From Arenicellales bacterium (GTDB lineage Bacteria > Pseudomonadota > Gammaproteobacteria > Arenicellales > JAJDZL01), in contig CAXXJB010000001.1 of NCBI GenBank assembly GCA_963663095.2, positions 1,355,203 to 1,379,202 on the forward strand: DNA of 24,000 bases. Reading direction: 5' to 3'. Position numbers and translations under genes: made by a program. Shown one piece after another: positions 7,112 to 24,000 of the stretch. The notes beneath the pieces were generated by a model. That model saw only the letters and a program-made list of their open reading frames with translations, had not been told where the DNA came from and did no database searches. How positions within the stretch are numbered: position 1 is the first letter of the stretch; every line of letters begins with the position of its first letter.

Positions 7112-7213
7112 GTATGAGCGGATTTTGATTTCAATCGCGGTAACCCAAAGTGATGAATTTGAATAAAATAAGGTGATACCCCAATTTATTCTTCGTTTTT
7201 TCAATGTCATGAA

Positions 7214-7840
7214 ATGATACTATCTAGCGCAGATTTTGACAATGGAGAGCAAATTCCTGAAAAGCTGGCTTTCTGCAAGCTGGACCCGGGATCCAACGTA
7301 GGGCTGTCGAACAATTGCAACCCTCACCTCAAATGGACTGGTGCCCCGGACGGGACGCGGTCATTCACACTGCTCTGTTGCGACCCGGATGTTCCAAGTC
7401 GCCCCGATGATGTCAACCAGGCAGGAAAAACTGTGCCTGCAAGTTTACCGAGAATTGATTTCTATCACTGGGTACTGGTGGATATTCCGGAATCAATCAC
7501 CGAAATTGCTTCAGCATCTCATAGCAGTGAAGTCACACCTTGCGGAAAATCGGCAGATGATGCGCCATCAGGTATGCGTCACGGAATCAATGATTACACA
7601 TTGTGGTTTTCAGGTGACAAAGATATGGGCGGTGAGTATTTTGGCTACGACGGGCCTTGCCCGCCGTGGAACGACAGTATCACGCATCACTACCACTTCA
7701 CTGTCTATGCGTTGGACATCGAAAGTCTGTCTGTCAGCGGCTCATTTACCGGACAGCAGGTTGTTGAGGCCATGCAGGGCCACGTTCTCGATCAAGCTTC
7801 GTTAATCGGCACCTATGCGCTCAATCCAGAATTACAGTAA
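7214..7840 (+). CDS. YbhB/YbcL family Raf-kinase-inhibitor-like (PEBP) protein
   Basis: CCDPDVP, FYHWVLVDIP, GINDY, YDGPCPP and HHYHFTVYALD are the PEBP family signature blocks. Confidence 0.88.
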   Translation: MILSSADFDNGEQIPEKLAFCKLDPGSNVGLSNNCNPHLKWTGAPDGTRSFTLLCCDPDVPSRPDDVNQAGKTVPASLPRIDFYHWVLVDIPESITEIASASHSSEVTPCGKSADDAPSGMRHGINDYTLWFSGDKDMGGEYFGYDGPCPPWNDSITHHYHFTVYALDIESLSVSGSFTGQQVVEAMQGHVLDQASLIGTYALNPELQ

Positions 7841-7843
7841 CCC

Positions 7844-8569
7844 GTGACCGGTTACACTCGTTACATTCTATCCGCCGCTGTTGTCTCATTGATTTGGGTG
7901 CTCACCGGTTGTGCAACGCTCTATACACCGACTGCCTGTAACGCGCTGGACCCCGAAGAATACACGGAAACACCCGATCCCTTCGAATCGGTCAATCGCG
8001 CGGTGTTTAAATTTAATCTAAGTTCAGACAAGGCCATTTATCAGCCTATCGCGAGAGCGTACAAAAAGATCACGCCCGACCCGGTAGAATCCAGTGTTTC
8101 CAGCTTTTACAGGAATCTCAAGGAACCGCGAAACATGATCTCATCTCTGTTATCGGGGAGATTGGGTATAACGGCTCAATCCGGAATACGATTTACCATG
8201 AACTCGACTGTCGGAGTGTTCGGCTTGTTTGATTTTGCAGATAAGGCAGGAATTCACTATTCGGACTACGATTTTGGTCACATGTTCGGATCCTGGGGAA
8301 TCGGTGACGGTCCCTACATTGTTTGGCCGTTTACAGGTCCGAGTAATCTGAGAGATTCTATCGGCTCTGCTACTCATCTGAATGTTACCTATGTGGAGAA
8401 ACGTATCAAGAAGTCAGAACATCAACTTTTTGTTCAAGTCGGATCTGTGGTTGACAGCAGGGCTCGCCTGCTGCCGTTCACTGACCTGCTCGAACAACAG
8501 CCGGATCCGTATCTGTTTGCACGGGAAAGCTATCGGCAATCCCGCCTGAATACAATCTGTAATCCCTAA
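7844..8569 (+). CDS. mlaA: Outer-membrane lipoprotein MlaA (VacJ), phospholipid asymmetry maintenance
   Basis: GTG start and a lipobox VLTGC. DPFESVNRAVFKFNLSSDKAIYQPIARAYKKITPDPVESSVSSFYRNLKEPRNMISSLLSG matches the MlaA core. Confidence 0.9.
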   Translation: MTGYTRYILSAAVVSLIWVLTGCATLYTPTACNALDPEEYTETPDPFESVNRAVFKFNLSSDKAIYQPIARAYKKITPDPVESSVSSFYRNLKEPRNMISSLLSGRLGITAQSGIRFTMNSTVGVFGLFDFADKAGIHYSDYDFGHMFGSWGIGDGPYIVWPFTGPSNLRDSIGSATHLNVTYVEKRIKKSEHQLFVQVGSVVDSRARLLPFTDLLEQQPDPYLFARESYRQSRLNTICNP

Positions 8570-9906: not shown

Positions 9907-12363
9907 TCAGATATCCAGATTTTGGACGGACAGGGCCTCTGTTTCGATGAACTCGCGTCTCGGCAGCACTTCGTCGCCCATCAGCACCTCAAACGCCTTG
10001 TCTGTCCGCATGGCGTCTTCGATCTTGACTTTTCGCAGCATGCGCTCGCTGGTGTCCATCGTCGTTTCGCGCAACTGATCTGCGTTCATTTCACCGAGCC
10101 CCTTATAGCGCTGGATGGATATGCCGTCGCGTGCGTCGTCAAGCAGCCAGTCGAGTGCTTCGATAAAACTTACATCGCCGACAGTCTTGCCGCTTTTGAT
10201 GACTTCGACCGTACCTTGCGCATACTTGCTCGACTCCTCTTCAAATCTGACTATCGATTTATAGGCCTGTGACCGTATGAACTTGTCGTCTATCCTGTAC
10301 ACGACCTTGTCGCCGAAGTGCTCCCTGACGATTCGCAGTCGGTAACGCTGGTGCCCGTTCTTCTCACCGTCCAGTTCGATGTCAACTTCGTAATGCGTGT
10401 TGCCATTCAGTTCCTTTACGAGATTTTCCCTTAATTCCCGAGCAACTGCAGTCAAATTCGATTCATCTTCGAATTGTGCTGCATCCAGCACCGACATCTT
10501 GGCCAAGACCGCCAGAACATCACTATCAAATGATCTCTTCAGTGAATTGACGGCGTTTTTGGCACCGACATGGAGCTCACACAGCTTTTCCAAGGCATCG
10601 CCTGTCAGAGTCAGTCTATTCGATTCTTTTTCTGATTCGAATCGAATTTCACTGCCGTTTACCGCAACTTCCAGAATATACCCATTCAGTTCCTGATCGT
10701 CGTTGAGATATTTTTCGGACTTACGATATTTTGCTTTATACAGCGGCGGCTGGGCGATATATAGATGGCCGCCCTCAATCAGACCGGGCATCTTGTTGTA
10801 GAAAAAGGTCAGAAGCAAGGTGCGGATATGCGATCCATCCACATCGGCATCCGTCATGATGATGACACGGTGATAGCGCAACTTTTCAATATCGAATTCC
10901 GGCAAAACACCCGTGCCCAATGCGGCAATCAAGGTCTGAATCTCATCGGAGCGCACAATCTTGTCGAAAGAGGCTTTCTGAACATTCAGAATCTTGCCCT
11001 TCAACGGTAAAATCGCTTGAAACTTTCGGTCTCTCGCCTGTTTGGCCGAGCCACCGGCCGATTCACCCTCTACAAGAAAGAGCTCACTTTCGGCTGGATC
11101 TTTCTCCTGGCAATCAGCCAGCTTACCGGGTAGACTGGTTGACTCAAAAGCGCTCTTGCGGGCCATCGCCTTTTCCTTTTGCGATTTCTCTCGAATGGCT
11201 GCAGCGCTGTTCACCTTTTCGCAGATCAGTTTGGCGACCTTGGGGTTCTCTTCCAGGAACTCAGCCAATCCTTCGGACACCACCGACTGCACCGCACCTT
11301 CAACATTCGATGAAACCAATTTGTCCTTGGTTTGGGAAGAGAACTTGGGATCGTGAAACTTGATCGACAATATCGCGGTCAGACCCTCCCGGGCATCCTC
11401 CCCGGTAACCTTGATCTTCTTGCTGAGTCCCTGTTTTTCCATATATCCCGTAATAGTCCGGGTAACAGCCTTACGGAATCCGGTATTGTGGGTGCCGCCG
11501 TCTCGCTGATACACGTTGTTGGTGTAGCAGCGAATATTTTCGTTGTAGTATTGTTGACACCACTGAAGCGCGGCGTTTACCTGGACGCCATCCTGTTCAT
11601 CGCTTACCGCAATAACCATCTCGTTCAGCGGATGTCGCACACGATTCATATCCGCTACAAATTCAACAATACCGCCTTTGTGGAACATGATCTGTTGCTG
11701 ACCGTCTCGCTCATCATACAATTCAATTCGCACTCCAGGATTGAGATACGACAATTCCCTCAGTCGCTGGTGCAGGGTATCGAATCGAAATTCGGTATCC
11801 GAAAACACTTCGGAAGAAGGCAGGAAGCGGATGGTGGTGCCTGTATTTTCGGTTTCGCCGATCACTTTCAGTGGCTCCACCGGTACGCCGTCACGAAACT
11901 CCTGATAGTGAATCTCGCCTTCTCGATGAATGGTCATCGACAGATGCTCTGACAGCGCATTGACAACCGACACACCGACACCGTGTAACCCGCCCGATGC
12001 GTCATAGGAAAGGTTGTCAAATTTCGCACCGGCGTGCAGGATCGTCATGATGATCGTGGCACCAGGTAAATCTTCGCCGTTTTCACCCTCGCCCTCCATG
12101 ATTCCAGTCGGAATTCCGCGGCCGTTATCAGAGACTGAAACAGAACCGTCGACATGTACTCTTGTTTCAATCCGATCGCAGAATCCCTGTGAGGCTTCAT
12201 CGATCGAATTGTCAACCACCTCCGTGACCATGTGATGGAGTCCGGTACCGTCATCCGTATCTCCGATATACATGCCGGGGCGTGTACGTACCGGAACGAG
12301 TCCGCGTAACACTTGAATATTAGTGTGGTCGTAGGTGTCGCTTGAGGGTTTATCAGGTATCAT
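9907..12363 (-). CDS. gyrB: DNA gyrase subunit B
   Basis: 818 aa. Motifs include YDHTNIQVLRGLVPVRTRPGMYIGDT, HHMVTEVVDNSIDEA, LHGVGVSVVNALS, EGESAGGSAKQARDR, PLKGKILNV and IMTDADVDGSHIRTLLLTFF. The length includes the long C-terminal-domain insertion typical of proteobacterial GyrB, and the protein ends ...SVQNLDI. Confidence 0.97.
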   Translation of the reverse strand: MIPDKPSSDTYDHTNIQVLRGLVPVRTRPGMYIGDTDDGTGLHHMVTEVVDNSIDEASQGFCDRIETRVHVDGSVSVSDNGRGIPTGIMEGEGENGEDLPGATIIMTILHAGAKFDNLSYDASGGLHGVGVSVVNALSEHLSMTIHREGEIHYQEFRDGVPVEPLKVIGETENTGTTIRFLPSSEVFSDTEFRFDTLHQRLRELSYLNPGVRIELYDERDGQQQIMFHKGGIVEFVADMNRVRHPLNEMVIAVSDEQDGVQVNAALQWCQQYYNENIRCYTNNVYQRDGGTHNTGFRKAVTRTITGYMEKQGLSKKIKVTGEDAREGLTAILSIKFHDPKFSSQTKDKLVSSNVEGAVQSVVSEGLAEFLEENPKVAKLICEKVNSAAAIREKSQKEKAMARKSAFESTSLPGKLADCQEKDPAESELFLVEGESAGGSAKQARDRKFQAILPLKGKILNVQKASFDKIVRSDEIQTLIAALGTGVLPEFDIEKLRYHRVIIMTDADVDGSHIRTLLLTFFYNKMPGLIEGGHLYIAQPPLYKAKYRKSEKYLNDDQELNGYILEVAVNGSEIRFESEKESNRLTLTGDALEKLCELHVGAKNAVNSLKRSFDSDVLAVLAKMSVLDAAQFEDESNLTAVARELRENLVKELNGNTHYEVDIELDGEKNGHQRYRLRIVREHFGDKVVYRIDDKFIRSQAYKSIVRFEEESSKYAQGTVEVIKSGKTVGDVSFIEALDWLLDDARDGISIQRYKGLGEMNADQLRETTMDTSERMLRKVKIEDAMRTDKAFEVLMGDEVLPRREFIETEALSVQNLDI

Positions 12364-12443
12364 ATGGAGCAGAATTTCTAGAATTTCCGGTCTTTGACCT
12401 GGTCATCGGCCGGATGAATTGATTAAAATCAACTTTTTGATTT

Positions 12444-13640
12444 TCAGCGATCCTTCAACAGCATCACAAGAAAATTTGAGGATTCATTCCCCGGAAATTT
12501 GAGCAGGCACGCGGACTGGGCATTTTTCAGGTTAAACTCAACTTTGTCGTATTCTTTCATCACCTCGAAAATATCCAGCAGATATTTTCCGTTGATCTGA
12601 AAGTCAAGAGACTCCCCGTTTTGTTCGACATCCATTTGCTCATCAATCTCAGCTTGCGAATTCCTGGATGACTGCGCATGGATTCTCAATCTACCGTCCC
12701 TGACTTGCATCGATGTTGGCACTTCCGGACCTAGAATCCCAACAACTCTGCGAAGTGACGCAATAATATTTTCCCGCGTAACTTGAAAGACACGCGATAG
12801 ATTGGCCGGAATCACACCCCGCCAGTCCGGATAGGTTCCTTCCAAAAGTTTCGAGGTAAACTTAATGTTGGGCGTACTCACCTGCACGTGATTGTCGTTG
12901 AATTCCAGTGTAACCGGTGATGAGAAATCAGCGAGCAACTTGCTAAGGTCCAGCACAGTTTTCCGAGGCACGATTGCGCGGTGCATGCTGTCATTCAGTC
13001 CGGTCACCACTTCAGTGTGGCACACCGCCATTCTATGACCATCGGTAGCCACTGTACGCAACTCGGATTCGTTCATTTCAAACAGCATCGCGTTGAGATA
13101 GTAACGTAAATCCTGAGATCCCATCGCGTGCTGGGCGCGTTGCACGATTGTCCGCAGGTCGGAACGACTGATCTGAAACTTGATATCCCAATCGCCTGCG
13201 TTGAGAATCGGAAATGGACCCGCCAATGTGTCCTGTGCCATTGTCTGCAGACTCAGGTGACTCTTCCCACTCTCACCTTCTGAATTTGCCGCTTCATCTG
13301 ACTCGGTTCGGGAACCGATACCGTCATCCAATTTGTTGATGTTCATCATCCCGTCTGAAATGTCAAACTTCAACTGGCAATCTTTTGGTTGCTGCCGGCA
13401 GTATTCCTGCACCGTCAGACCCGGAAACGCGACCCGTCCAGATTCTGTTACCTGAACATCTGATACGAATTCACTGATCTCTATATCAATATTGGAACCT
13501 GTCAGTTGAATTCCGTTCCTTTCATCATTGACAGTCAGAAGAACGTGAGAGAGAATTGGAATTGTGGGATTTCGGTCAACAACAGTGTTGACTCGATTCA
13601 GAGGATTGAGAATCTGGTCTCGTTCAACAATAAACTGCAT
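12444..13640 (-). CDS. dnaN: DNA polymerase III beta sliding clamp
   Basis: 398 aa. MQFIVERDQILNPLNRV, PILSHVLL, DLRYYLNAMLFE, LRTVATDGHRMAV, FTSKLLEGTYPDWRGVIP and the C-terminal LVMLLKDR are collinear with E. coli DnaN. It carries an extra acidic loop at about residues 104-126. Confidence 0.95.
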   Translation of the reverse strand: MQFIVERDQILNPLNRVNTVVDRNPTIPILSHVLLTVNDERNGIQLTGSNIDIEISEFVSDVQVTESGRVAFPGLTVQEYCRQQPKDCQLKFDISDGMMNINKLDDGIGSRTESDEAANSEGESGKSHLSLQTMAQDTLAGPFPILNAGDWDIKFQISRSDLRTIVQRAQHAMGSQDLRYYLNAMLFEMNESELRTVATDGHRMAVCHTEVVTGLNDSMHRAIVPRKTVLDLSKLLADFSSPVTLEFNDNHVQVSTPNIKFTSKLLEGTYPDWRGVIPANLSRVFQVTRENIIASLRRVVGILGPEVPTSMQVRDGRLRIHAQSSRNSQAEIDEQMDVEQNGESLDFQINGKYLLDIFEVMKEYDKVEFNLKNAQSACLLKFPGNESSNFLVMLLKDR

Positions 13641-13821
13641 AAAAATTCCAAAGGTATTAATTATGTTTTTATTTGGCTTGTGTGCAACTAGAACAAGTCG
13701 ACTTTAGCCAATATAATCAAGCTGTTATATCGAGCAATGCCTGTCGAAAACTTTCTGCAAAACAACTGAGAACATGTGTATCGACAAATTCGCTTGATGG
13801 TCCTCGAAGAACCTCAAAAAC

Positions 13822-13841
13822 TTATGCACACATTATACACT
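13822..13841 (+). promoter_or_regulatory. Tandem DnaA-box pair in the dnaA-dnaN spacer: TTATGCACA (13822-13830) and TTATACACT (13833-13841)
   Basis: The first 9-mer fits the E. coli-type consensus TTATNCACA exactly. The second differs only at the last base. Weaker reverse-orientation matches are TGTGTATCG at 13775-13783 and TGTGCAACT at 13681-13689. Confidence 0.5.
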
Positions 13842-13891
13842 GAAAAGCGTACAGACTGCTGTCAATAAGTCGTTGTTGCAGGTCAGCAAAG

Positions 13892-15262
13892 TCAAGACGA
13901 AAGTATATCTTTCAGGGTGTTGAACTCGGTTCTGAATTCGCTGTCTTTCTCAAGCAGACCATCGATTTTCTTGCTCGCATGCACCACTGTGGTGTGGTTC
14001 TTGCCACCGATTTCCCGGGCAATTCGGGGCAGGCTGTGGGTTGTCAGATTCCTGGACAGAACCATTGCGACATGCCGGGCCCGCGCAATGTTCGCTTTGC
14101 GGCTATTTGAATGGATATCGTCGACCCGAATGCGGTAAAAACGGGCAACTTCCCTGACTATCGTCTGAATATCAATGGGGCGGGCGTTGAACTCGAGCAT
14201 GTCATACAAGACCTGTTTGACTACTGCGATGGTGATCCCCTTGTTTGTGAATCGATGACTGGCGATCAGTTGGTTGAGCGCACCTTCAAGTTCCCGCACG
14301 CTGCCGTAGATTTTTTCGGCGACGAACCTTGAGACCTCTGGGTCAAGTTCGACACCGCGCCTTTCCGCTTTGGATTCAAGGATGGCTATTCGGGTTTCGA
14401 GTTCCGGTGGTTTGACCCGGATCGCGATGCCCTGTCCAAGTCTGGATTTAAGGCGATCCTCCACGCCCTGAATTTCCTTGAAAAACCGGTCACTGGTGAT
14501 GATGATTTGCTTGTTTCCCTCCAGCAGTGCATTGAACGTATGCAGAAACTCCTGCTGCGAGACATCCGCACCGGCAAAATGATGGATGTCGTCGATCAGC
14601 AGCACATCAAGGTCGTGGTAGAAATTCTTGAATCGCTCAATACTCTCACTGTCCTTTCTTTTCATCAGCGTGACCAGATGCCGCACAAAATTGTTCGCCC
14701 TGACATATCGGGTCTGCTTGTCGGGAAACCTTCGAATCAGCTCGCGTCCGGCTGCCTGCATCAGATGTGTTTTTCCGTTCCCGACATCACCGTATATGAA
14801 CAGTGGATTGTGGTCACGCAGTCCTGGCTCTTCGGCCGCTCTTTGTGCCATGTACCTTGCCAGTTGGTTGGATTCACCCACGACATGCTGGTCGAAGGTA
14901 TATTCCGGAGTGAGTTTTTCGAATCCGAAAGGTTGTTTGTTGTTCATCGCTGTCGCTTGGCGACTGTTTGGATTGGTTTTACGACTAAAAGTATTCCCGT
15001 CGGAATTGGCCCCGGAGTTTGATACTGTACCAATATTTACTGAAATTTCGTACTTTTGGCCGGTCAGAAATTCAGCGATCTCGGCAATTTGTGGAAGGTA
15101 ATTTGATTCGATTTTCCGTTTTGTGAAGCGGTTGGGTGCGTTTAGTACAAGAGAAGTGCCGGATTCAACCGCGCTCAGAGAGCGCAGCCAGGCAGTTACT
15201 TCGGCCTCATTGTGGTCTTGCTCCAAACGCGAAAGAGTTTGTTTCCATAGAGCTGAAGGCAT
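13892..15262 (-). CDS. dnaA: Chromosomal replication initiator protein DnaA
   Basis: 456 aa. Walker A is LFIYGDVGNGKTHLMQA and Walker B is LLIDDIH. Other matches are ITSDR, LKSRL..G, the domain IV ARHVAMVLSR.LT..SLP.IA...GGKNHTTVVHA, and the N-terminal LW...L..L......AWL. Confidence 0.97.
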   Translation of the reverse strand: MPSALWKQTLSRLEQDHNEAEVTAWLRSLSAVESGTSLVLNAPNRFTKRKIESNYLPQIAEIAEFLTGQKYEISVNIGTVSNSGANSDGNTFSRKTNPNSRQATAMNNKQPFGFEKLTPEYTFDQHVVGESNQLARYMAQRAAEEPGLRDHNPLFIYGDVGNGKTHLMQAAGRELIRRFPDKQTRYVRANNFVRHLVTLMKRKDSESIERFKNFYHDLDVLLIDDIHHFAGADVSQQEFLHTFNALLEGNKQIIITSDRFFKEIQGVEDRLKSRLGQGIAIRVKPPELETRIAILESKAERRGVELDPEVSRFVAEKIYGSVRELEGALNQLIASHRFTNKGITIAVVKQVLYDMLEFNARPIDIQTIVREVARFYRIRVDDIHSNSRKANIARARHVAMVLSRNLTTHSLPRIAREIGGKNHTTVVHASKKIDGLLEKDSEFRTEFNTLKDILSS

Positions 15263-16068
15263 AATTTTTCAGACCATTTCTAATTCTTTAACTTGGTTTG
15301 AAATGCAATAATATTTGCATGAATATTCGGTATTTTGATACTCGAATGGAGCATGGCGTTCCATAGCCGATTGTAATGCACAGTTTACGCAGTCTGTCAA
15401 ACTTTTTGAGGGTGATTTGTCTCCTTTCCGCTAAGAGATTGATTTTATAAGCCGTTCGAATCCATCAACTACAACTGGCAGCAAAAAAAATTCTGTCATT
15501 GCCAAATAAATTCATGTGAAAGTCACTGGATGGGCTGTTTCCTTACGTTTCGATAACTGCTGAAAAATACTTTGAAATTTCGATAAGGTATTGATTTGTA
15601 AATTAAATTTAAGACTTGATTTGACAAATGTAAGTTGTCCAGTCGATTGATCACGGCAAAATCAAGGCGACGGAGTCAGTCGATTCTACGTGAGAACAGA
15701 CTGGATTCAAACCCTCCGAATATCGTATTCGCTTCACAAAATACATTGAGTATCAACAGAATAAATCACGGATTTACCAGAAAACACACCCCACCTGCGC
15801 GTGACAATAGTCTCTACTTTGGCATGCTGGCCGAGTGGCTCGATTTTCAGCTTGACCAATGTCGAAATAGAGCGCGAAAAGAGATTTGCAGGATAGCCTT
15901 CTATTGAACCCATCGGGAGACTATCGGTGTTGGCTCCAAAGCAACCTAAATTGGTAGTCGAACAAATCTACGAGGGCGATTGGGTGAACAGTGAAATTGC
16001 TATACTGTCTGTATTCGATTTGAGTTTGATTCAGTTCAATATAATCGACTAAAAGTGCCATAAAACGA
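15263..16068. other. 806-bp non-coding, partly AT-rich region between divergent dnaA and frmA; candidate dnaA promoter and/or oriC/DNA-unwinding region
   Basis: No convincing ORF; the only one is a 90-aa TTG-start ORF with no recognisable family. The most AT-rich stretch is about 15540-15640, with short direct repeats TTTCGATAA (15548, 15578) and TTGATTTG (15591, 15616). Gene orientation switches from minus on the left to plus on the right across this gap. Confidence 0.3.
15303..15320. repeat. Inverted repeat ATGCAA-N6-TTGCAT, 41 bp upstream of the dnaA start codon (function unknown, possible operator)
   Basis: Read directly from the sequence: aaATGCAAtaatatTTGCATgaa. The arms are perfect 6-mers. 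Confidence 0.4.
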
Positions 16069-16086
16069 ATGACGGAGGGTGAATTT

Positions 16087-17199
16087 GTGCAGACTAACGC
16101 AGCCGTAGCCTATGAAGCAGGCAAACCACTTGAAATTGAGAGGGTAGAACTTGACGGCCCCAAGGCTGGAGAGGTGATGGTGGAGATCAGGGCCACCGGC
16201 ATTTGCCATACCGATGAATTCACACTATCTGGTGCAGATCCCGAAGGGCTGTTCCCGGCGATATTGGGCCATGAAGGAGCTGGTGTGGTGGTAGATGTGG
16301 GTGAGGGAGTTACCAGTGTGAAGGCTGGCGATCATGTAATTCCTTTGTACACACCCGAGTGCAGGCAATGTGAGTACTGCACAAGCGGTAAGACCAATTT
16401 GTGTCAGGCGATTCGGGAAACACAAGGTCAAGGCCTGATGCCTGATGGAACCAGCCGCTTTTCCCTGGGTGGCAAGCCGCTATTCCACTATATGGGAACA
16501 TCGACGTTTGCGAACCACACTGTCGTGCCTGAAATTGCAGTTGCGAAAATTCGTGAAGACGCGCCATTCGACAAAGTTTGCTACATCGGTTGTGGTGTCA
16601 CCACTGGAATTGGTGCTGTCATGAATACCGCAGAAGTGCAGCCAGGCGATAATGTGGTTGTGTTTGGTCTTGGCGGAATCGGTCTCAATGTTGTCCAAGG
16701 TGCGAGAATAGCGGGTGCTGACATGATTGTTGGCGTTGACATCAATCCGGCACGAGAAGCGCTCGCAGACAGATTCGGTATGACCCATTTCGTCAATCCG
16801 AATGAAGTTGAGGGTGATATTGTGCCATATCTGGTGTCGCTGACGGGTGGTGGAGCAGACTTCAGTTTTGAATGTGTCGGGAATGTCGAACTGATGCGGC
16901 AGGCACTTGAATGCTGCCACAAAGGCTGGGGCGAAAGCATCATCATCGGTGTTGCGGGAGCCGGTCAGGAGATCAGCACACGACCGTTTCAGCTCGTCAC
17001 AGGCCGGGTTTGGCGCGGCACTGCATTCGGCGGTGCCAAAGGCAGGACTGATGTGCCCAAGATCGTTGACTGGTATATGGATGGAAAAATAAATATTGAT
17101 GATCTGATCACCCACAAAATGCCATTGAATAGGATCAATGATGCGTTTGACCTGATGCATGCGGGCAAATCCATCCGCAGCGTCGTCGAGTTCGCGTAA
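16087..17199 (+). CDS. frmA: S-(hydroxymethyl)glutathione dehydrogenase / class III alcohol dehydrogenase
   Basis: [62 protein letters not shown], the Rossmann VFGLGGIGL and the C-terminal GKSIRSVV support the call. I prefer the GTG at 16087, which is preceded by GGAGGG at 16074-16079 and gives 370 aa like homologues. The track ATG at 16069 is the alternative. Confidence 0.93.
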
Positions 17200-17205
17200 G
17201 TCGTT

Positions 17206-18039
17206 ATGGAAGTTGTCAGCGAGCACCGCTGTTTCGGTGGTGTGCAGGGTATCTATCGCCATCAGTCCCGGCAAACCAAGACTCCGATGCAATTTTCGGT
17301 ATTCGTACCTTCATCAGCTGGCGAGGGCGTGCGTCCCGTTTTGTGGTTTTTATCTGGATTAACTTGTACGGAGGAGAATTTTACGGTCAAGTCCGGGTCA
17401 CAGAAATTTGCCGATAGCCACGGAATGATCTTAGTCGCGCCTGACACAAGTCCAAGAGGTGCCGGGGTCGAAGGCGAGGATGAGAGCTACGATTTTGGAA
17501 CCGGTGCTGGATTTTACCTGGATGCCACTCAACCGCCTTGGAATGAGCATTACCAAATGTATTCCTATATCACCCAGGAACTTCAGAATGTGGTTTGCGG
17601 GAATTTTCCAGTCGACCGTTCACGACAGGGAATTACCGGGCATTCAATGGGTGGACATGGAGCGTTGACTATCGGTTTGAAGAATTCGGAGCTGTACAGA
17701 TCGATATCTGCCTTCTCTCCGATCTGTTCACCGACTCGATGTCCGTGGGGCCAAAAGGCGTTGAGCGGGTATCTTGGGGAAGACCGTAGTGCATGGGTCC
17801 AATACGATGCAGTGGAACTGATCAGAGACGGTCATCGAAGCGGCACGATTCTTGTCGATCAAGGGGATGCGGACAATTTCCTTGATGAGCAGCTGAAACC
17901 GCAGCTTCTAAATTCCATTTGTACTGATACCGGTCAGCCTCTGCAGTTACGTATGCAGCAAAGCTATGATCACAGCTACTATTTCATCTCCAGCTTCATT
18001 GAGGACCACATTGCGTTCCACGCCTCACAATTGAAGTAG
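17206..18039 (+). CDS. fghA: S-formylglutathione hydrolase (esterase D family)
   Basis: The N-terminus HRCFGGVQGIYRHQS....MQFSVFVP, then LSGLTCTEENF, the nucleophile elbow GHSMGGHGAL, DQGDADNFL and the C-terminal YDHSYYFISSF support the call. It lies 6 bp downstream of frmA, the canonical pathway pairing. Confidence 0.92.
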   Translation: MEVVSEHRCFGGVQGIYRHQSRQTKTPMQFSVFVPSSAGEGVRPVLWFLSGLTCTEENFTVKSGSQKFADSHGMILVAPDTSPRGAGVEGEDESYDFGTGAGFYLDATQPPWNEHYQMYSYITQELQNVVCGNFPVDRSRQGITGHSMGGHGALTIGLKNSELYRSISAFSPICSPTRCPWGQKALSGYLGEDRSAWVQYDAVELIRDGHRSGTILVDQGDADNFLDEQLKPQLLNSICTDTGQPLQLRMQQSYDHSYYFISSFIEDHIAFHASQLK

Positions 18040-18199
18040 ATATATCTGGGATCAACAATAGTTGTCCTGAGTTCATGAATGGTACTCCTGACTGTCAATT
18101 CTGTCGCTTGCGATAATGAGAAATTAATTGCTCAACGGAATTGAACTACATTATGTGGCAATCACATCGCACAAATTTAAAGCCCATTTCGTACTTGAT

Positions 18200-18208
18200 T
18201 GTTATAAT
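18200..18208 (+). promoter_or_regulatory. Candidate extended -10 promoter element TGTTATAAT upstream of rpmH
   Basis: A TGnTATAAT match was read at 18200-18208, about 93 bp upstream of the rpmH ATG. No good -35 hexamer lies at 17-bp spacing, which is tolerated for extended -10 promoters. Confidence 0.35.
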
Positions 18209-18300
18209 TTGGCAGTTGCTGTCCACTCCAAGTAGCACGGTTTGAGTTGTCGCAGCATTCGGATAGCAGAATTGAAAACAGAATATCGTGGTTTGAAATT

Positions 18301-18435
18301 ATGAAACGTACCTTTCAACCGAGCAATTTGAAAAGAAAACGCAAACACGGGTTTCGTGCCCGCATGAGAACCCGTGGCGGTCGGGCCGTAATCAATGCAC
18401 GACGAGCGAAAGGCCGCTCAAGGCTCAGTGCATGA
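18301..18435 (+). CDS. rpmH: 50S ribosomal protein L34
   Basis: [44 protein letters not shown], 44 aa, is the canonical L34. The track ORF starting at 18247 is an upstream TTG extension. Confidence 0.97.
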
Positions 18436-18796
18436 TAAAAATTCATCGCCGAGAGGACATTGCTTTCCAGGAGGCCTTAGATTAAAGCGGCGCGGTGACT
18501 ATCGGACGGTTTTCCAAAAGAACAGGCAGGTTTCAAACCGGTATTTTCGGGTTCTGGTGCACGGCGAACCGAACCGAACAGGTCCACGTCTCGGAATCGT
18601 TGTTTCTCGCCGAGTATCTAAAAAGTCAGTTGAGCGAAATCGAATCAAGCGTCAGATACGTGAGTGTTTCAGAACCCATCAACATCATTTGATTTATCGC
18701 GACATGGTGATCATCGCGCACCATGCTTGTGTGTCGGCACCAAATGCTGAATTGCGCAACAGACTGATCAGACTATTCAAACAGTTGGAAAATTGA
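18428..18796 (+). CDS. rnpA: Ribonuclease P protein component
   Basis: [44 protein letters not shown] (the RNR motif) and the 122-aa length from GTG 18428 match RnpA. This start overlaps the rpmH stop by 8 nt. The track start at 18395 lies inside rpmH. The start is uncertain. Confidence 0.88.
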
Positions 18797-19020
18797 GAAG
18801 AATTCTTGTTTTGGCCATACGTGGCTACCAATATGTAATCAGTCCGCTGTTCGGTCCGTGCTGCCGGTTCCACCCGACATGTTCCAGTTATGCGGTTGAG
18901 GCGATCAAGAAGCACGGTGCGTTGAAAGGATCGTTCCTCACGGTTTGCCGAATCGGCCGATGTCATCCTTGGCATCCGGGTGGTTTCGATCCGGTGCCGG
19001 AGGCCGGTGAAAATAGCTGA
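18793..19020 (+). CDS. yidD: Membrane protein insertion efficiency factor YidD
   Basis: [62 protein letters not shown] supports the call. The TTG start overlaps the rnpA stop as TTGA. Confidence 0.92.
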
Positions 19021-20729
19021 TGGACTTCAGACGTGCACTACTGTCCATTTCACTCGGGCTGATCTTGCTGCTGATTTGGCAGGCATGGCTGGATTTTCAG
19101 CAAAAGAAGGAGCAGATCACGCCGGTCGTCCAAACTGATTCCACCCCGGGTGTTCCGACATCACCGTCCTCCACGGGCCAGCCTCAGACTGCCGCAATCG
19201 GCGAAGTTCCTGAAACACCTACCGCTCCAACAGCAACAGCGCCGACTGCTGGCGTTCCAACGGCCAGTTCTGTGCTGGAATCAGCGCAACGCATCAAGAT
19301 CCAGACCGATCTTCTGAAAGTGGAGATCGATACTTACGGCGGTGAAATTCGAGAAGCGAAGCTGCTTGAATACCCGGTCGAGGTTGATATGCCGGATGTC
19401 CCGTTTCGACTGCTGACGGATACCGGGCCTGGAATCCTGGTGGCACAATCAGGCCTGGTCGGAACGGGCGGCGAGTTTCCGAATCATAAAACGGAATTTA
19501 AGGCTGAAGCGGAATCCTATGAACTACTGGATTCAGATAGTTCGCTTGAAGTGCCTCTTCGCTGGACATCGCCCGACGGCATAAACTATTTGAAAACATT
19601 CACTTTCTATCGAGACAGCTATCTGATTGATGTTGATTTTACGGTCGACAACAGAAGTGGAAAGCGATTGGAAACCTATCAGTATGGACAATATCTGAGC
19701 ACCGAGTATGTCGAGGAATCCGAGGGATTTTTGTTTTTCAAGGCCTTGCCGAGCTACAAGGGGGCGGCGCTTTACACGCCCGAGAACAAGTACGAAAAGA
19801 TAGATTACAAGGAAATACGAAATGACAGTCCGGTGTTCGAGACGAATTCCGGATGGGTGGCAATGCTGCAGCATTATTTCATGACCGCGTGGCTGCCTTA
19901 TGAAAACGCACCGTATGAGTTTTATACCAAGCCGCTTCATGACGCAAGCGGGCAGACACGCTATCTGGCCGGCTATGTCACTCGTACTCCAACGATTGTC
20001 GAAAACAATTCTGTCGGCACACTGCGCACCCAGATCTATGTCGGGCCGAAAGAACAGGACAGAATCAAGGATCCGTCCGAAGGCCTGATACTGACGGTCG
20101 ATTACGGTTGGCTGACACCCGTATCTTCACCTCTTTTCTGGATTCTGCAGAAAATCAACGACGTAATAAAAAACTGGGGATGGTCAATCATTCTGCTGAC
20201 ACTACTGGTCAAAATTGTGTTCTATCCACTGTCGGCTGCCAGCTACAAGTCCATGGCGAAAATGAAGAAACTCCAGCCGAGGCTGAAAACTCTTAAAGAA
20301 CGATATGGCGATGACAAGCAGAAGCTGAATCAGGAGATGATGCAGATCTATAAGAAAGACAAAATCAATCCGCTTGGCGGCTGTCTTCCGATATTGATCC
20401 AAATTCCAGTTTTTATCGCTCTTTATTGGGTCTTGCTGGAAAGTGTCGAACTTCGTCAGGCACCGTTCATTTTCTGGCTTGACGATCTTTCGCGCGCAGA
20501 CCCTTACTATGTGTTGCCGGTGTTGATGGGAGCGTCGATGTTTGCACAGCAGTTCTTGAATCCGACTCCGTTGGATGCGCTTCAGAAAAACATCATGATG
20601 AGTCTGCCGATAGTATTTACCTTTTTCTTTCTGTGGTTTCCGTCTGGTCTTGTGCTTTACTGGCTCATCAACAATGTCCTTTCAATTGCACAGCAGTGGT
20701 ACATCACCAGAAAGTTGGCAGCGATCTGA
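19020..20729 (+). CDS. yidC: Membrane protein insertase YidC
   Basis: 569 aa with an N-terminal TM and a large periplasmic domain. The conserved C-terminal core is GWSIILLTLLVKIVFYPLS..SYKSMAKMKKLQPRLK.LKERYGDDKQKLNQEMMQIYKK.KINPLGGCLPILIQIPVFIALY. The ATG overlaps the yidD stop as TGATG. Confidence 0.96.
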   Translation: MDFRRALLSISLGLILLLIWQAWLDFQQKKEQITPVVQTDSTPGVPTSPSSTGQPQTAAIGEVPETPTAPTATAPTAGVPTASSVLESAQRIKIQTDLLKVEIDTYGGEIREAKLLEYPVEVDMPDVPFRLLTDTGPGILVAQSGLVGTGGEFPNHKTEFKAEAESYELLDSDSSLEVPLRWTSPDGINYLKTFTFYRDSYLIDVDFTVDNRSGKRLETYQYGQYLSTEYVEESEGFLFFKALPSYKGAALYTPENKYEKIDYKEIRNDSPVFETNSGWVAMLQHYFMTAWLPYENAPYEFYTKPLHDASGQTRYLAGYVTRTPTIVENNSVGTLRTQIYVGPKEQDRIKDPSEGLILTVDYGWLTPVSSPLFWILQKINDVIKNWGWSIILLTLLVKIVFYPLSAASYKSMAKMKKLQPRLKTLKERYGDDKQKLNQEMMQIYKKDKINPLGGCLPILIQIPVFIALYWVLLESVELRQAPFIFWLDDLSRADPYYVLPVLMGASMFAQQFLNPTPLDALQKNIMMSLPIVFTFFFLWFPSGLVLYWLINNVLSIAQQWYITRKLAAI

Positions 20730-22075
20730 TCGTTGAAGCCGATACCATTGCGGCGATTTCTACCCCCGCCGGCATCGGCGGCATTGGAATAATAAGAGTA
20801 TCGGGGTCGAAGGCATCTGATTTCGCGCATGCCGTAACTCGCAAAGCCGTCATTGCGAGACAGGCAATGTTCACAGGATTCTTCAACGACGGTGGCGAAC
20901 TGATTGATGAAGGCGTTCTTCTCTTCTTTCCGTCGCCCGGGTCCTACACCGGTGAAGACGTATGCGAATTCCACAGTCACGGAAGTCCTGTCGTGCTCAA
21001 TTTGCTCTTGTCAAGGTTGCAGGAACTCGGTGCAAGACTGGCGGACCCCGGAGAATACACACGAAGGGCATTTTTGAACGGCAAACTCGACTTGGCTCAA
21101 GCAGAAGCTGTCGTTGATCTGATCAACAGTTCAACAGCCGTGGCTGCGCAATCTGCCATACGCTCCCTGAGCGGGGAGTTTTCTGAGCGGGCGCACAAGA
21201 TCGTGGAAAAAATTGTCAATCTGAGGGTTTTCATTGAGGCCGCAATTGATTTCCCGGAAGAAGAAATTGATTTTCTGGCGAATTCAGATATTGCAGTGGC
21301 AATAAAACAAATCAGGCATGATTTGACAGAACTGATTGATCAGTCATCTGCTGGCAGCCTGTTGCGCGAGGGTATTACGGTTGTGATCGCAGGCCGTCCA
21401 AATGCAGGAAAATCTAGTCTTTTCAACCGGTTGGGAATGCAGGACCGTGCAATCGTGACACCGCATCCCGGAACAACCCGTGACACAGTGGATGTTACTG
21501 TCGACGTAAACGGACTGGCGGTTCGGCTGATCGATACTGCCGGATTGCGGGACATTTCCGACGAAATTGAAAAGGAAGGTATCTCACGCACAAGACAAGC
21601 GGTGCAGTCGGCTGATGTCGTTCTCTATGTCATCGACAGTGAGCAGGGGGTATGTAATGAGGACCTGCAGGAGATTGAGGGTTTGGATTCCACACGTTGT
21701 TCCGTCGTATGGAACAAGACCGACTTGATCGGGGATGCTCGGCCTACACTTTCATCCAAGTCTTTTCATCAGACTCATGTGTCCGCGTTAACTGGTTTGG
21801 GCATGGAAAAAATATATAAAATAATACAGCGGATTGCGGGTTATGAAGTGAATGAAGAAGGACTTTTCCTCGCACGTCGAAGACACCTTTCCGCAATGAA
21901 GCGGGCCGGCGAGTTCGTGGTGCGGGCGCAAGATGCTCTCGTACGGCAGTCGGCAGGTGAACTTGCAGCCCAAGACTTGTGGGATGCGATGAAATCGCTC
22001 GATCAGATTACCGGAACGCCTTCCTCGGACGAATTGCTTGGCGAGATATTCGCTAGTTTCTGCATTGGTAAGTAA
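20696..22075 (+). CDS. mnmE: tRNA modification GTPase MnmE (TrmE)
   Basis: DTIAAISTPAGIGGIGIIRVSG, the G-domain motifs GRPNAGKSSLFN, DTAGLR and NKTD, and the C-terminal FCIGK support the call. I place the start at GTG 20696 (459 aa), overlapping yidC by 34 nt. The track GTG at 20633 is the alternative, and no ATG lies near the conserved N-terminus. Confidence 0.93.
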   Translation: MVHHQKVGSDLIVEADTIAAISTPAGIGGIGIIRVSGSKASDFAHAVTRKAVIARQAMFTGFFNDGGELIDEGVLLFFPSPGSYTGEDVCEFHSHGSPVVLNLLLSRLQELGARLADPGEYTRRAFLNGKLDLAQAEAVVDLINSSTAVAAQSAIRSLSGEFSERAHKIVEKIVNLRVFIEAAIDFPEEEIDFLANSDIAVAIKQIRHDLTELIDQSSAGSLLREGITVVIAGRPNAGKSSLFNRLGMQDRAIVTPHPGTTRDTVDVTVDVNGLAVRLIDTAGLRDISDEIEKEGISRTRQAVQSADVVLYVIDSEQGVCNEDLQEIEGLDSTRCSVVWNKTDLIGDARPTLSSKSFHQTHVSALTGLGMEKIYKIIQRIAGYEVNEEGLFLARRRHLSAMKRAGEFVVRAQDALVRQSAGELAAQDLWDAMKSLDQITGTPSSDELLGEIFASFCIGK

Positions 22076-22147: not shown

Positions 22148-23080
22148 ATGACTAATTTAAGTAAATCCCAGACCATTCTCCTGCAGATGCTGCTCGTATT
22201 GGCGGCGGTCGCTTCGGTTGTAATTTGGCAGTACGACTACTTGGCCGACTTATATATCCGAAACCAGATCACCCGAATCGGCTTGGTCATCAATGTTGCG
22301 ATTGTGGTACTTTTTATTTCAGGTCTTTCGCAGTTGATTCGGCTGTTCTTTCTGTATGATCGGGAGGAGAAGGCACTGCAGCAGTTTTCTGACGCGATTT
22401 CGTCGGAAGATGTGGAGCAGAAACTCAATCAGCTATCCGAGAGCACCATCATCGGACAACGATATCGGATTGTGAGCGATTTTTTCAGTGCCCGCGCTGA
22501 GTTCAATCACAACGCGCTTGCCGCAACGCTACTTGCACACGAGACCAGCCGCACCAGTTTCGCTAAGTTTGTCAACAACATACTGATACTTACGGGAGTA
22601 TTCGGAACGATAATTTCGCTGACTGTGGCACTTCTGGGAGCGTCGACAGCGATTTCCGATACCAATAGCCTGCGAGGTATTGATATTGTCATTCACGGCA
22701 TGTCGACAGCGTTGTCCACTACCATGACCGCGATTCTGGCCTATTTTCTGTTCGGCTATTTTTACCTGAAGTTGCTCGACACCCAGTCTTACATCCTTGG
22801 AAAGATTGAACACGTAACAGCCACAGTATTGATTCCACAGTATCAGGCGGCTACCCGTTCACCCGAACAGAATTTAAACGCGATGCTCGCCGGGACAGTT
22901 GAAACAATCGAGAAATTTGACACTTTCATTCGTCAAATTCAGGAAATCAGTGCCAAGCAGGACGAGGTATTCACCAATTTTGAGAAATTGACCGACCAGA
23001 ATATGCATCTGCTAACGGATATTCGCGGCATATTGCGTGCTGGATTCAGATTGCGCGACGAGTCTGACGAAGAAAACTGA
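22148..23080 (+). CDS. MotA/TolQ/ExbB-family proton-channel-like membrane protein (stator A-subunit-like) with a charged helical C-terminal tail
   Basis: 310 aa with four hydrophobic segments at about residues 10-27, 44-68, 146-168 and 178-208. The last two carry ILILTGVFGTIISL and GMSTALSTTMTAILAYFLFGYFY. By eye these align with the LLGLLGTVWGI and GIAEALLATAIGLVAAIP blocks of ExbB/TolQ/MotA. A tail of about 95 aa, rich in E, Q and K, ends in DESDEEN. Confidence 0.65.
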   Translation: MTNLSKSQTILLQMLLVLAAVASVVIWQYDYLADLYIRNQITRIGLVINVAIVVLFISGLSQLIRLFFLYDREEKALQQFSDAISSEDVEQKLNQLSESTIIGQRYRIVSDFFSARAEFNHNALAATLLAHETSRTSFAKFVNNILILTGVFGTIISLTVALLGASTAISDTNSLRGIDIVIHGMSTALSTTMTAILAYFLFGYFYLKLLDTQSYILGKIEHVTATVLIPQYQAATRSPEQNLNAMLAGTVETIEKFDTFIRQIQEISAKQDEVFTNFEKLTDQNMHLLTDIRGILRAGFRLRDESDEEN

Positions 23081-23097
23081 CCCCGGAGGGGAAGGAC

Positions 23098-24000
23098 ATG
23101 ACTTGGAATACTGGCGGATTCGTTGATCTTCGCGTTCATCGGGCATCTGAAGCCAGTCACTCAGACGATAGCATATGGCCATCATTCACGGACATCATGA
23201 TGGTGATCGTGATGATATTTCTGATGGCTTCCGTCATATTCATGCTACGAAATGTTCAATTGGGTAAAGATCTGCAGTCATCCCTCTCGGCTGAAAGCGA
23301 CGCGACCCAGGAAATCCGCTCACTTCAAGAAAGAACTGCCTATCTATCTGAAATCATAAAACAAACAGAACAACGAGTAGTCGATTCTGAGCGCCTCAGG
23401 AAAGAAACAAGCAAACTCGCCGAGCAGCGCGGTACCCGAATTGCTGAGCTCGAATACGAGACCGCCGATCTTTATCGCACACAGGCGCAGTTGACTTTGG
23501 AATTGGAAGGTCTCAACACTCAACTCAGCGAGTCTCGGGTCGAACGTGCGCAACTGACCGAACGTATCACATCAATGAACTCGATTATCGCGGACTTGGA
23601 GTCTGTCAGTGAGAGCAAGACGACGGCCCTGGCTACTCTGCAACAGAACTTCGACCAAAAGCTGATTGAGCTTCAGACCGTAGAATCAAACCTTGAGGAA
23701 AAACAAATTGAAATCGCAACCCTGCAGGATTCCTTGGAAAATCTGCGAGCGGTTGAACTTGAACAACAAAAAAACATCGTGGAATTGATTGAGACCCGGA
23801 TGGCATTGGAATCAATAAGCGAACTACAAAAATCACAAATAACTCAATTGGTTCAATTACATACTGAACTTGAACAGCAGTCTGAAAAGCAACAGTCAGA
23901 GATTGCCCAACTGACAGAAAGACAAGAAGAGCTGCAATCGCTGAGCGAGGAACAGGTCACACGCATCGCGACGCTTCTTGAGAATCGCGGACGACTTGAG
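23098..24000 (+). CDS. MotB-like stator B-subunit-like protein: N-terminal TM with conserved Asp followed by a long coiled coil; 3' end runs off the window
   Basis: Absent from the ORF track because it has no stop in the window. GGAGG at 23086-23090 lies 7 nt before ATG 23098, and the frame is open to 24000 (301 aa). Residues 26-50, IWPSFTDIMMVIVMIFLMASVIFML, resemble the MotB/PomB/ZorB W..(F/Y)(A/T)D(L/F)MT...FF TM. Its Asp is at residue 32 (codon 23191-23193). From about residue 60 onward the sequence is heptad-like and rich in L, E and Q (LQERTAYLSEIIKQTEQR...LQTVESNLEEKQIEIATLQDSLENLR...QLTERQEELQSLSEEQ). Confidence 0.65.
   Translation, partial: MTWNTGGFVDLRVHRASEASHSDDSIWPSFTDIMMVIVMIFLMASVIFMLRNVQLGKDLQSSLSAESDATQEIRSLQERTAYLSEIIKQTEQRVVDSERLRKETSKLAEQRGTRIAELEYETADLYRTQAQLTLELEGLNTQLSESRVERAQLTERITSMNSIIADLESVSESKTTALATLQQNFDQKLIELQTVESNLEEKQIEIATLQDSLENLRAVELEQQKNIVELIETRMALESISELQKSQITQLVQLHTELEQQSEKQQSEIAQLTERQEELQSLSEEQVTRIATLLENRGRLE

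Follow-up and report, generated by a model that had tools for sequence, protein, structure and literature searches.

A two-gene relative of the 5:2 ion-driven motors, with a coiled-coil B subunit, at the mnmE locus of an Arenicellales bacterium

Ion-driven motors built from five A and two B subunits (5:2 motors) power flagella, nutrient import, outer-membrane upkeep, gliding, and phage defence, and each newly understood member of the class has revealed another route by which energy is carried outward from the inner membrane. What kind of machine, then, is encoded by an orphan pair of genes that follows mnmE in an Arenicellales bacterium? The pair, here called A and B, lies at the end of a 24,000-nucleotide stretch of contig CAXXJB010000001.1 (positions 1,355,203 to 1,379,202 of the forward strand; hereafter the window), and B runs past its edge. 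An earlier note, made from the letters of the window, had described two adjacent plus-strand genes 17 bp apart, the second with its own GGAGG ribosome-binding site, and had likened them to a MotA/MotB stator pair; the open reading frames (ORFs) and the sequence agree with this layout, A starting 72 bp past the end of mnmE (22075).

A and B are real, adjacent, conserved genes and far from a chance pair of ORFs; at the same locus, 17 Arenicellales genomes carry A with 64-94% identity. They represent a new and discrete family of the 5:2 motor superfamily, distinguished by the novel architecture of B and by a novel domain. A proposal to which we assign about an even chance is that A and B form a self-contained ion-driven A5B2 motor, in which the B dimer would be a rigid shaft in the periplasm that transmits force or torque to the outer envelope. 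The evidence on the two subunits, on the shaft, and on the genomic setting is given below, together with the alternatives on which it bears.

Subunits A and B within the 5:2 motor superfamily

For B, the PADLOC model ZorB1 matches residues 15-96 (E = 2.4e-8), and the matches to ZorB1, ZorB2, and ZorB3 together range from E = 2.4e-8 to 7.6e-4. A profile of the first 88 residues of the family, searched against PDB sequences, recovers the ZorB chains 8vvn_B (E = 1.7e-6), 8vvi_A (3e-4), and 8qyd_F (1.3e-3), with the membrane Asp aligned in all three; ExbD surfaces only weakly. Entries 8VVN and 8VVI come from Mariano et al. (PMC11890865) and represent ZorAB complexes of types I and II, respectively; 8QYD is a ZorAB structure listed among the fold-search matches of A (see below). 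The aligned Asp is residue 32 of the motif WPSFTD32IMM (codon 23191-23193) and is the same in all 23 aligned family members. By these comparisons, the closest solved relative of the N-terminal part of B is ZorB, and the MotB-type transmembrane (TM) helix with a protonatable Asp32 that the earlier note had proposed is supported both by the ZorB1 match and by the alignment to ZorB chains. When the N-terminus of B was used in a profile search for sister families with other C-terminal domains, only short fragments at contig ends were returned.

Subunit A has four hydrophobic helices, at about residues 10-27, 46-70, 142-165, and 182-207, followed by a tail of ~100 amino acids (aa); relative to ExbB, it has an additional N-terminal TM helix and a long C-terminal helix (239-299). 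An AlphaFold2 model built on the homologue alignment (mean predicted local distance difference test score, pLDDT, 81.7) was compared with the PDB using Foldseek, and the best 50 matches were all A subunits of 5:2 motors, with ExbB and TolQ first, then ZorA, PomA, and MotA; probabilities were 0.97-1.00 and TM-scores reached 0.65 on the target, with modest E-values of 1e-3 and weaker. The model thereby conforms to the superfamily fold, in which the last two TM helices pair as a hairpin and a helical cytoplasmic domain is added. Together with Pfam MotA_ExbB (PF01618), which is matched by 36 of 40 aligned A homologues at E <= 0.01 (best 2.7e-5), these fold matches agree with the earlier assignment of A to the MotA/ExbB/TolQ channel family.

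The most conserved blocks of A are LTGVFGT154 in TM3 and HGMSTALSTT192MTAI in TM4. In hhalign comparisons, GVFGT154 aligns with GLFGT148 of Escherichia coli ExbB and with the matching TolQ block (weak E, 0.02-0.03), and ALSTT192 aligns with ExbB ALLAT181 and the equivalent TolQ block, again with weak statistics. T154 and T192 are invariant, and their ExbB counterparts in this weak alignment (E = 0.02) are T148 and T181; in the ExbBD and TolQR structures, it is these Thr residues that face the B-subunit Asp. As judged from its modeled fold, A is a very divergent member of the MotA/ExbB/TolQ superfamily, because a profile of its core matches no solved A subunit by sequence.

The coiled coil, the end domain, and their side of the membrane

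The coil of B follows the TM helix directly, and N52, L55, and L59 near its start are conserved across the family. Across B residues 51-301, a single heptad frame is kept in 27 of 32 sliding windows, L, I, V, M, or F makes up 57% of the a and d positions versus 14% of the others, and the resulting heptad contrast of 0.43 compares with 0.087 ± 0.037 in 2000 shuffles (largest 0.28). This segment contains no Pro and four Gly, and no Cys occurs anywhere in the windowed B fragment. Because Asn52 occupies an 'a' position, and a buried Asn there is a classic sign of a parallel, in-register coiled-coil dimer, the B coil is probably two-stranded and parallel, which fits two B chains per motor.

B beyond the window edge was read from relatives, using a scan of species-representative genomes that gave 17 Arenicellales/Gammaproteobacteria loci in which A is 64-94% identical to that of the window. 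The B protein of one of these (L002) has 841 aa and is identical to the windowed B at 284 of 301 residues (94%); the full-length B of the window probably has ~840 aa. The earlier estimate of at least 240 residues of coil (~36 nm) therefore stands as regards the uninterrupted heptads but falls far short in length, the coil reaching ~700 aa in this closest relative. Across the 17 related genomes B ranges from 610 to 1261 aa, and the Arenicellales coils comprise 465-1108 aa without any Pro, with a dominant hydrophobic period of 3.5. Among close relatives (A 91-94% identical to that of the window), B measures 841, 883, and 925 aa, in steps of exactly 42 aa, and the differences in coil length arise from tandem DNA repeats of 126 bp (42 aa, 6 heptads) and 231 bp (77 aa, 11 heptads). 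Repeats are located in the B genes of L002, L003, and L004 at ~10940-13720, in L004 at 11819-12186, and in L018 at 12178-13762 (231 bp, 6.6 copies); the group of L008 and L011-L016 shows an 81-aa periodicity in B, which is not a multiple of 7.

All 17 B proteins end in a domain of ~90 aa, RPARS…(I/V)xxP…EAWxFT…YDYY(H/Y/S), which reaches the C-terminus or stops a few residues short of it. In the window's own B this domain lies beyond the edge, and it was read in the 94%-identical L002 and all 17 Arenicellales loci. The earlier note had raised an OmpA or other peptidoglycan-binding domain as a possible C-terminus; the relatives carry this new domain and no OmpA, neither OmpA nor MotB_plug is matched in B, and Pfam ExbD is matched in one of 22 sequences at E = 0.1. 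An AlphaFold2 model of the end domain is compact, with core pLDDT above 90 and the order β-β-β-α-β-α. Searches of Pfam, NCBIfam, and PDB sequences, and a Foldseek search against viral models, gave no match, while Foldseek against the PDB gave a best E of 0.04, with ribosomal and RNase-H-like chance matches and no ExbD or TolR in the top 50. The secondary-structure order resembles that of the ExbD/TolR periplasmic domain, and on the model there may be a very remote link to it; an assignment as an ExbD/TolR domain is not supported, given hhalign E-values of 0.3 against E. coli TolR and 0.63 against ExbD and nothing significant from Pfam or Foldseek. We treat the end domain as a new α/β domain, distinct from OmpA.

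A profile of this domain, searched against 1.84 billion cluster representatives, identified 380 proteins (50%-identity clusters) at E <= 1e-3, of which 351 score at E <= 1e-10, and the domain is C-terminal in every match. Among the best 147 new matches, all full-length proteins carry the WPSFTD helix, and the 35 that do not are N-terminally cut fragments; full-length representatives range from 258 to 538 aa (median 332). Homologues outside Arenicellales, which are mostly from Gammaproteobacteria and include Leucothrix pacifica and one Zetaproteobacterium, share the plan of TM helix, coil, and end domain. The family can thus be defined by a WPSFTD helix, a Pro-free heptad coil, an RPARS…YDYYxQ end, and an A-type gene directly upstream; the helix, the coil, and the A gene are seen in the window, and the end in its relatives. 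Full-text searches of the literature returned no description of it; a survey of MotAB relatives lumps such pairs as structurally diverse 'generic ion transporters' of unknown function, with no mention of coiled coils (PMC12505986).

Shaft length was measured in 140 full-length representatives as the distance, in residues, that separates the membrane Asp and the Arg of RPARS. This distance is 0 mod 7 in 88 of the 140 and 4 mod 7 in another 31 (chi-square p = 3e-62). Because any flexible break would erase such heptad quantisation, the helix must, on this sequence pattern, run unbroken and keep its phase all the way from within the membrane to the end domain. The commonest distance, 196 residues, equals 28 heptads, or ~29 nm at 0.148 nm per residue, and ~29 nm is about the span of the Gram-negative envelope. 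Nine of the 17 Arenicellales proteins fall in the multiple-of-7 class, at 70, 72, 101, 103, 109, 115, 130, and 163 heptads. Folding of these coils back into passes of ~28 heptads was considered and rejected, the 70-163 heptads not being odd multiples of the modal length.

Such lengths could also belong to a protein that does no work: the pair might be a degenerate, channel-like membrane anchor for a passive periplasmic spacer or filament, such as an Lpp-like distance ruler or a CrvA-like curvature filament. The modal coil length does match the width of the envelope, and, as happens in structural proteins, expansion of repeats makes the length vary. However, the strongest constraint falls on catalytic features, with Asp32 and its flanks and the Thr/Gly blocks of A all invariant, which would be unexpected if ion flow were irrelevant, and we regard the absence of a working motor as quite improbable.

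On which side of the membrane do the coil and the head (the end domain) lie? B is collinear with ZorB, MotB, and ExbD, which implies, at the level of sequence, an N-in, C-out topology with coil and head in the periplasm. The Cys content lends independent support to this side, since Cys would be expected to be avoided in an oxidising compartment: not one Cys occurs among 43,168 coil residues, 189 of 191 end domains are free of it, and the other two carry exactly two each, at matching positions. These two, P0013 and P0016, are the sole Cys-bearing head domains, and their Cys residues (…HC…LYV… and, at the C-terminus, …xCx) suggest a disulfide confined to their lineage.

The inverse arrangement, in which a cytoplasmic coil would serve as a membrane-anchored scaffold or cytoskeletal element, perhaps tied to the neighbourhood of the origin and parAB, would accommodate several observations. 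The cytoplasm would more easily hold rods of 100-170 nm, and the Arenicellales coils far exceed the periplasm; the flanks of the B TM helix lack a clear positive-inside signal; the Arenicellales gene lies near parAB; and homologues are labeled 'Smc' in some databases. Yet the N-terminus, TM helix, and Asp of B are collinear with those of N-in ZorB, MotB, and ExbD, the coils lack Cys and the heads contain it only as a pair, the pair is not near parAB in other lineages, and the 'Smc' labels and SMC hidden Markov model (HMM) matches reflect coiled-coil bias and lie far under the cut-offs. We therefore give an inverted topology very little credence. The SMC, Rad50, and JetC HMM matches on B were all rejected on the same grounds of coiled-coil bias and scores far below cut-off.

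Genomic setting and the possible work of the proposed motor

All 17 Arenicellales loci have the order (yidC)-mnmE-A-B-mnmG-rsmG-parA-parB, and no promoter-like or intergenic terminator-like sites were found between mnmE, A, B, and mnmG. In eight unrelated contexts from other lineages, B is immediately preceded by an A gene (306-341 aa) that abuts or overlaps it, and the contexts otherwise have nothing in common; the genes around the pair have ordinary housekeeping functions, and no third gene is conserved. A and B are a self-contained two-gene module. The gene content of the 24-kb window confirmed the earlier remark that it holds no flagellar, Tol, Ton, or Zor genes (Tol-Pal, TonB, and Zorya partners included), and the view that the pair falls outside characterised clades was likewise strengthened, mnmG being the next gene and A and B alone being shared among the eight contexts.

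Several details of these contexts may be recorded. On an unrelated gammaproteobacterial contig (L001, 8972-13096) the pair is again directly upstream of mnmG (gidA), with other genes upstream, and this adjacency is not kept in the other seven contexts. A protein of ~260-280 aa with a weak or faint match to SH3_3 (bacterial SH3) is encoded near the pair in two of the eight contexts, at 15228-16064 (-) in L019 and, directly downstream of B, at 7122-7898 (+) in L026, and may reflect chance or an occasional partner. In the Zetaproteobacterium (L022, 1-6796), the pair follows an envelope-related string comprising an rsmI-like TP_methylase, UPF0102, SIS, a BON-domain protein, and others, which may be coincidence.

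This setting bears on whether the pair is an unrecognised Zorya-like anti-phage system whose long periplasmic coil would sense envelope damage. The PADLOC ZorB1-3 matches, a faint ZorA2 match (E = 0.034), and the rank of ZorB chains as the best PDB sequence matches would fit such a system. It is nonetheless very improbable in our view: no ZorC, D, E, F, G, or effector gene adjoins the pair in the window, the 17 Arenicellales loci, or the eight other contexts; A has 310 aa against the 590 positions of the PADLOC ZorA2 model; B is without an OmpA-like domain; and the Arenicellales pair, fixed between mnmE and mnmG at the origin without promoter or terminator signals, shows the pattern of vertically inherited housekeeping genes, not that of a defence island.

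The self-contained A5B2 motor that we propose would work as follows. Five A subunits would form an inner-membrane ring whose last two TM helices bear the conserved Thr residues, and two B TM helices, each with a protonatable Asp32, would sit inside the pore. On leaving the membrane, the B helices would pass, without plug or linker, into one parallel, in-register, two-stranded coil, a rigid periplasmic shaft tipped by the α/β head (…RPARS…YDYYxQ). Ion flow would turn A5 against B2, and the shaft would convey force or torque to a target held by the head in the cell wall or outer membrane; B would thereby take the role of TonB, TolA, or GldM as a built-in transducer. Since the TM helix runs into a phase-locked coil, a rotation or piston movement of A5 against B2 would be passed rigidly to the head. 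The location of the genes within housekeeping gene strings suggests constitutive envelope work as the cellular role. The fold of A, the Asp-bearing helix of B, and the absence of partner genes all support the general form of this idea in the earlier note, namely a machine of unknown output driven by the proton-motive force.

Several points weigh against this proposal. The sequence link of A to the MotA/ExbB/TolQ superfamily is weak, resting on Pfam's broad model and on fold: the MotA_ExbB match of the window's A, in the search that the earlier note had called for, scores 20.4 bits (E = 4.4e-4), below the gathering score of 22.9 even as most homologues match; a profile of the TM3-TM4 core matched no solved A subunit or other motor subunit among PDB sequences; and the full-length A profile returned coiled-coil noise from the tail only. 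The 5:2 stoichiometry, the rotation, the parallel dimeric coil, the partner of the head, and the cellular role are all inferred, and the topology is drawn from homology and Cys avoidance. The head has no recognisable binding fold, making its target a guess. Rods in the lineage of the window would measure 70-166 nm, several times the normal periplasm, and the shafts of close relatives differ by whole 42-aa repeats, a poor fit to a periplasmic ruler of fixed length; either such rods lie in the plane of the periplasm, or the envelope is unusual, or phase matters more than length. Lastly, the conserved GFRL end of A is cytoplasmic, and the output could be cytoplasmic instead.

That last point leads to an arrangement like that of MotAB or ZorAB, in which the head would fix B to the cell wall or outer membrane, the A pentamer would move, and output would pass to the cytoplasm through the 60-residue tail helix and GFRL tip of A to a soluble or membrane partner encoded elsewhere. 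ZorB chains are the closest solved relatives of B, and A has a long predicted C-terminal helix in which L296, G299, F300, R301, and L302, at the tip (GFRL motif), are invariant; in Zorya, it is through the cytoplasmic tail of ZorA that the signal passes (PMC11946911, PMC11890865). On the other hand, an in-register rod of 28 to 163 heptads would be an elaborate anchor, where MotB and ZorB make do with a short linker plus an OmpA-like domain, the latter absent here, and no cytoplasmic partner gene is conserved nearby in the eight contexts. An anchored stator is the main rival reading, at well under an even chance.

A more specific form of the A5B2 motor, which we consider unlikely, is a proton-driven rotary one with a coiled-coil drive shaft, heptad-phased from Asp to head, that would deliver torque and not just pull. 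Its Arenicellales version, grown by repeat expansion, would be a long powered cable (a tensioner, twister, or stirrer) lying within the periplasm, since 70-166 nm cannot stand across it. Such a cable, if real, would be a mechanical element without a described counterpart, and rods of 100 nm and more raise the question of how they fit within the periplasm. 

Apart from this reading, the heptad-exact spacing from Asp to head is what a torque-carrying axle would need, and a coiled coil is easily lengthened, shortened, phase-shifted, or labeled. Whether the Ton and Tol motors rotate is still debated; the pair could allow a direct test of rotation in non-flagellar 5:2 motors.

The positions of the features discussed are collected in Table 1. 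The window is a chromosomal origin region, with gyrB-dnaN-dnaA on the minus strand and rpmH-rnpA-yidD-yidC-mnmE on the plus strand; the genes of this region span 9910-15262 (-) and 16069-22075 (+), with rpmH at ~18307-18435. Between dnaA and rpmH lie a class-III alcohol dehydrogenase gene (16069-17199) and one for an S-formylglutathione-hydrolase-like esterase (17206-18039). DnaA boxes are not enriched in the window (two consensus boxes found versus 4.9 expected). The gene for MlaA, an outer-membrane lipoprotein of lipid asymmetry maintenance, lies 14 kb upstream of the pair at 7844-8569 (+), without evident link to it, and the ORFs at 5601-6266 (-), 6263-7210 (-), and 1233-1832 (+), of 221, 315, and 199 aa, respectively, have no Pfam match at E <= 1e-5.

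Table 1. Features of the A-B locus, with positions counted from the first letter of the window.
Feature	Positions	Strand	Basis and remarks
mnmE (tRNA modification GTPase)	20633..22075	+	ORF; GTG start, true start may be further downstream; also 5' of A in 17 Arenicellales loci
Gene A, 310-aa subunit	22148..23080	+	ORF; ExbB/TolQ-like fold, four predicted TM helices
A TM3 (residues 142-165), LTGVFGT154 block	22571..22642	+	Invariant G150, V151, G153, T154
A TM4 (residues 182-207), ALSTTMTAI block	22691..22768	+	Invariant G184 and A188-I196
A cytoplasmic tail helix (residues 239-299)	22862..23053	+	AlphaFold2 secondary structure; ends in invariant L296..G299-F-R-L302
GGAGG ribosome-binding site of B	23085..23089	+	Sequence; within the 17-bp A-B spacer, 8 nt 5' of ATG
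Gene B, first 301 codons	23098..24000	+	ATG at 23098, frame open to the window edge
GFVDLR N-terminal cytoplasmic motif (B residues 7-12)	23116..23133	+	Family consensus MxxxGFxDLR
B TM helix (residues 27-50), WPSFTD32IM	23176..23247	+	Invariant W27, P28, S29, F30, T31, D32, I33, M34
Heptad coiled coil, start (B residues 52-301)	23251..24000	+	Single heptad frame, no Pro; invariant Asn52 at 'a'

Comparison with known motor systems

ZorAB (PDB 8QYD, 8VVN, 8VVI) provides the best sequence match to the N-terminus and Asp helix of B, and ZorA, which is among the fold matches of A, also carries a C-terminal helical tail. The ZorA tail, however, runs to several hundred residues versus ~100 aa in A, ZorB bears an OmpA-like peptidoglycan-binding domain where B has a long coil and the new head, and the A-B locus is a housekeeping one without ZorC-G partner genes.

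The ExbB-ExbD-TonB and TolQ-TolR-TolA systems share with the pair the best fold matches to A (TM-score up to 0.65), the alignable GxxGT and ALxxT Thr blocks, and the logic of an inner-membrane motor whose long, extended element crosses the periplasm and ends in a small C-terminal head. There, a third and separate protein, TonB or TolA, bound to the rim of the pentamer provides this element; here it is part of B itself, in the form of the coil. No tonB, tolA, tolB, or pal gene was found in the window or the 17 related loci. ExbD and TolR have ~140 aa, in contrast to the 610-1261 aa of B in the Arenicellales lineage and 258-538 aa elsewhere, A has its additional N-terminal TM helix, and homology of the head to ExbD/TolR is unsupported.

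In GldM, the central dimeric subunit forms a long rigid periplasmic shaft that emerges from the pentamer pore and is thought to convey rotation to the outer membrane (PMC9389320). GldLM and PorLM thus resemble the pair in that the central subunit itself is the shaft, but the GldM shaft consists of globular domains, GldL has two TM helices versus four in A, and GldLM is accompanied by type IX secretion system (T9SS) genes. Sequence comparison gave no meaningful link, the GldL HMM match being faint (E = 0.082) and falling on the coiled region, and there are no T9SS genes nearby. The nearest published idea to B is that of the trans-pore helix (TPH)-vWA proteins, found with TolQ-like genes, in which a subunit predicted to be of B type has a trans-pore helix with an Asp and serves directly as the transducer of force in the periplasm (PMC12204202, Mol Biol Evol 2025). 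There, too, no separate TolR/ExbD gene is present; those proteins differ in having a vWA end domain and heterologous pairs, where the present family has a coil, an unrelated 90-aa head, and a single B gene.

The NCBIfam models PRK09039 and PRK09040 match B weakly over its TM helix and the 150-190 residues of coil that follow, at E = 3.4e-7 and at 0.0069 to 0.0014. These MotB-like families, matched at 30 bits versus a cut-off of 305, take their name from a peptidoglycan-binding C-terminus, which is absent in B. The matches hint that further B-type proteins have a coiled stretch following the TM helix, and they can serve as a lead only.

The flagellar MotAB and PomAB stators belong to the same superfamily and share the four TM helices in A and the Asp at the cytoplasmic end of the B helix. 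Unlike theirs, the B subunit described here has no plug, Gly-rich linker, or OmpA-like domain, MotA and PomA rank below ExbB, TolQ, and ZorA as fold matches of A, and no flagellar genes are nearby. The pair is nearer to ExbB/TolQ in A and to ZorB in B than to flagellar MotAB, and the earlier judgement that it matches none of the characterised 5:2 motors holds by the criteria for the flagellar stator, Zorya (types I-III), Ton/Tol, and GldLM/PorLM. As a minimal two-gene version, whose central subunit includes a rigid shaft and a new head within the same protein, it would represent a distinct design within the class.

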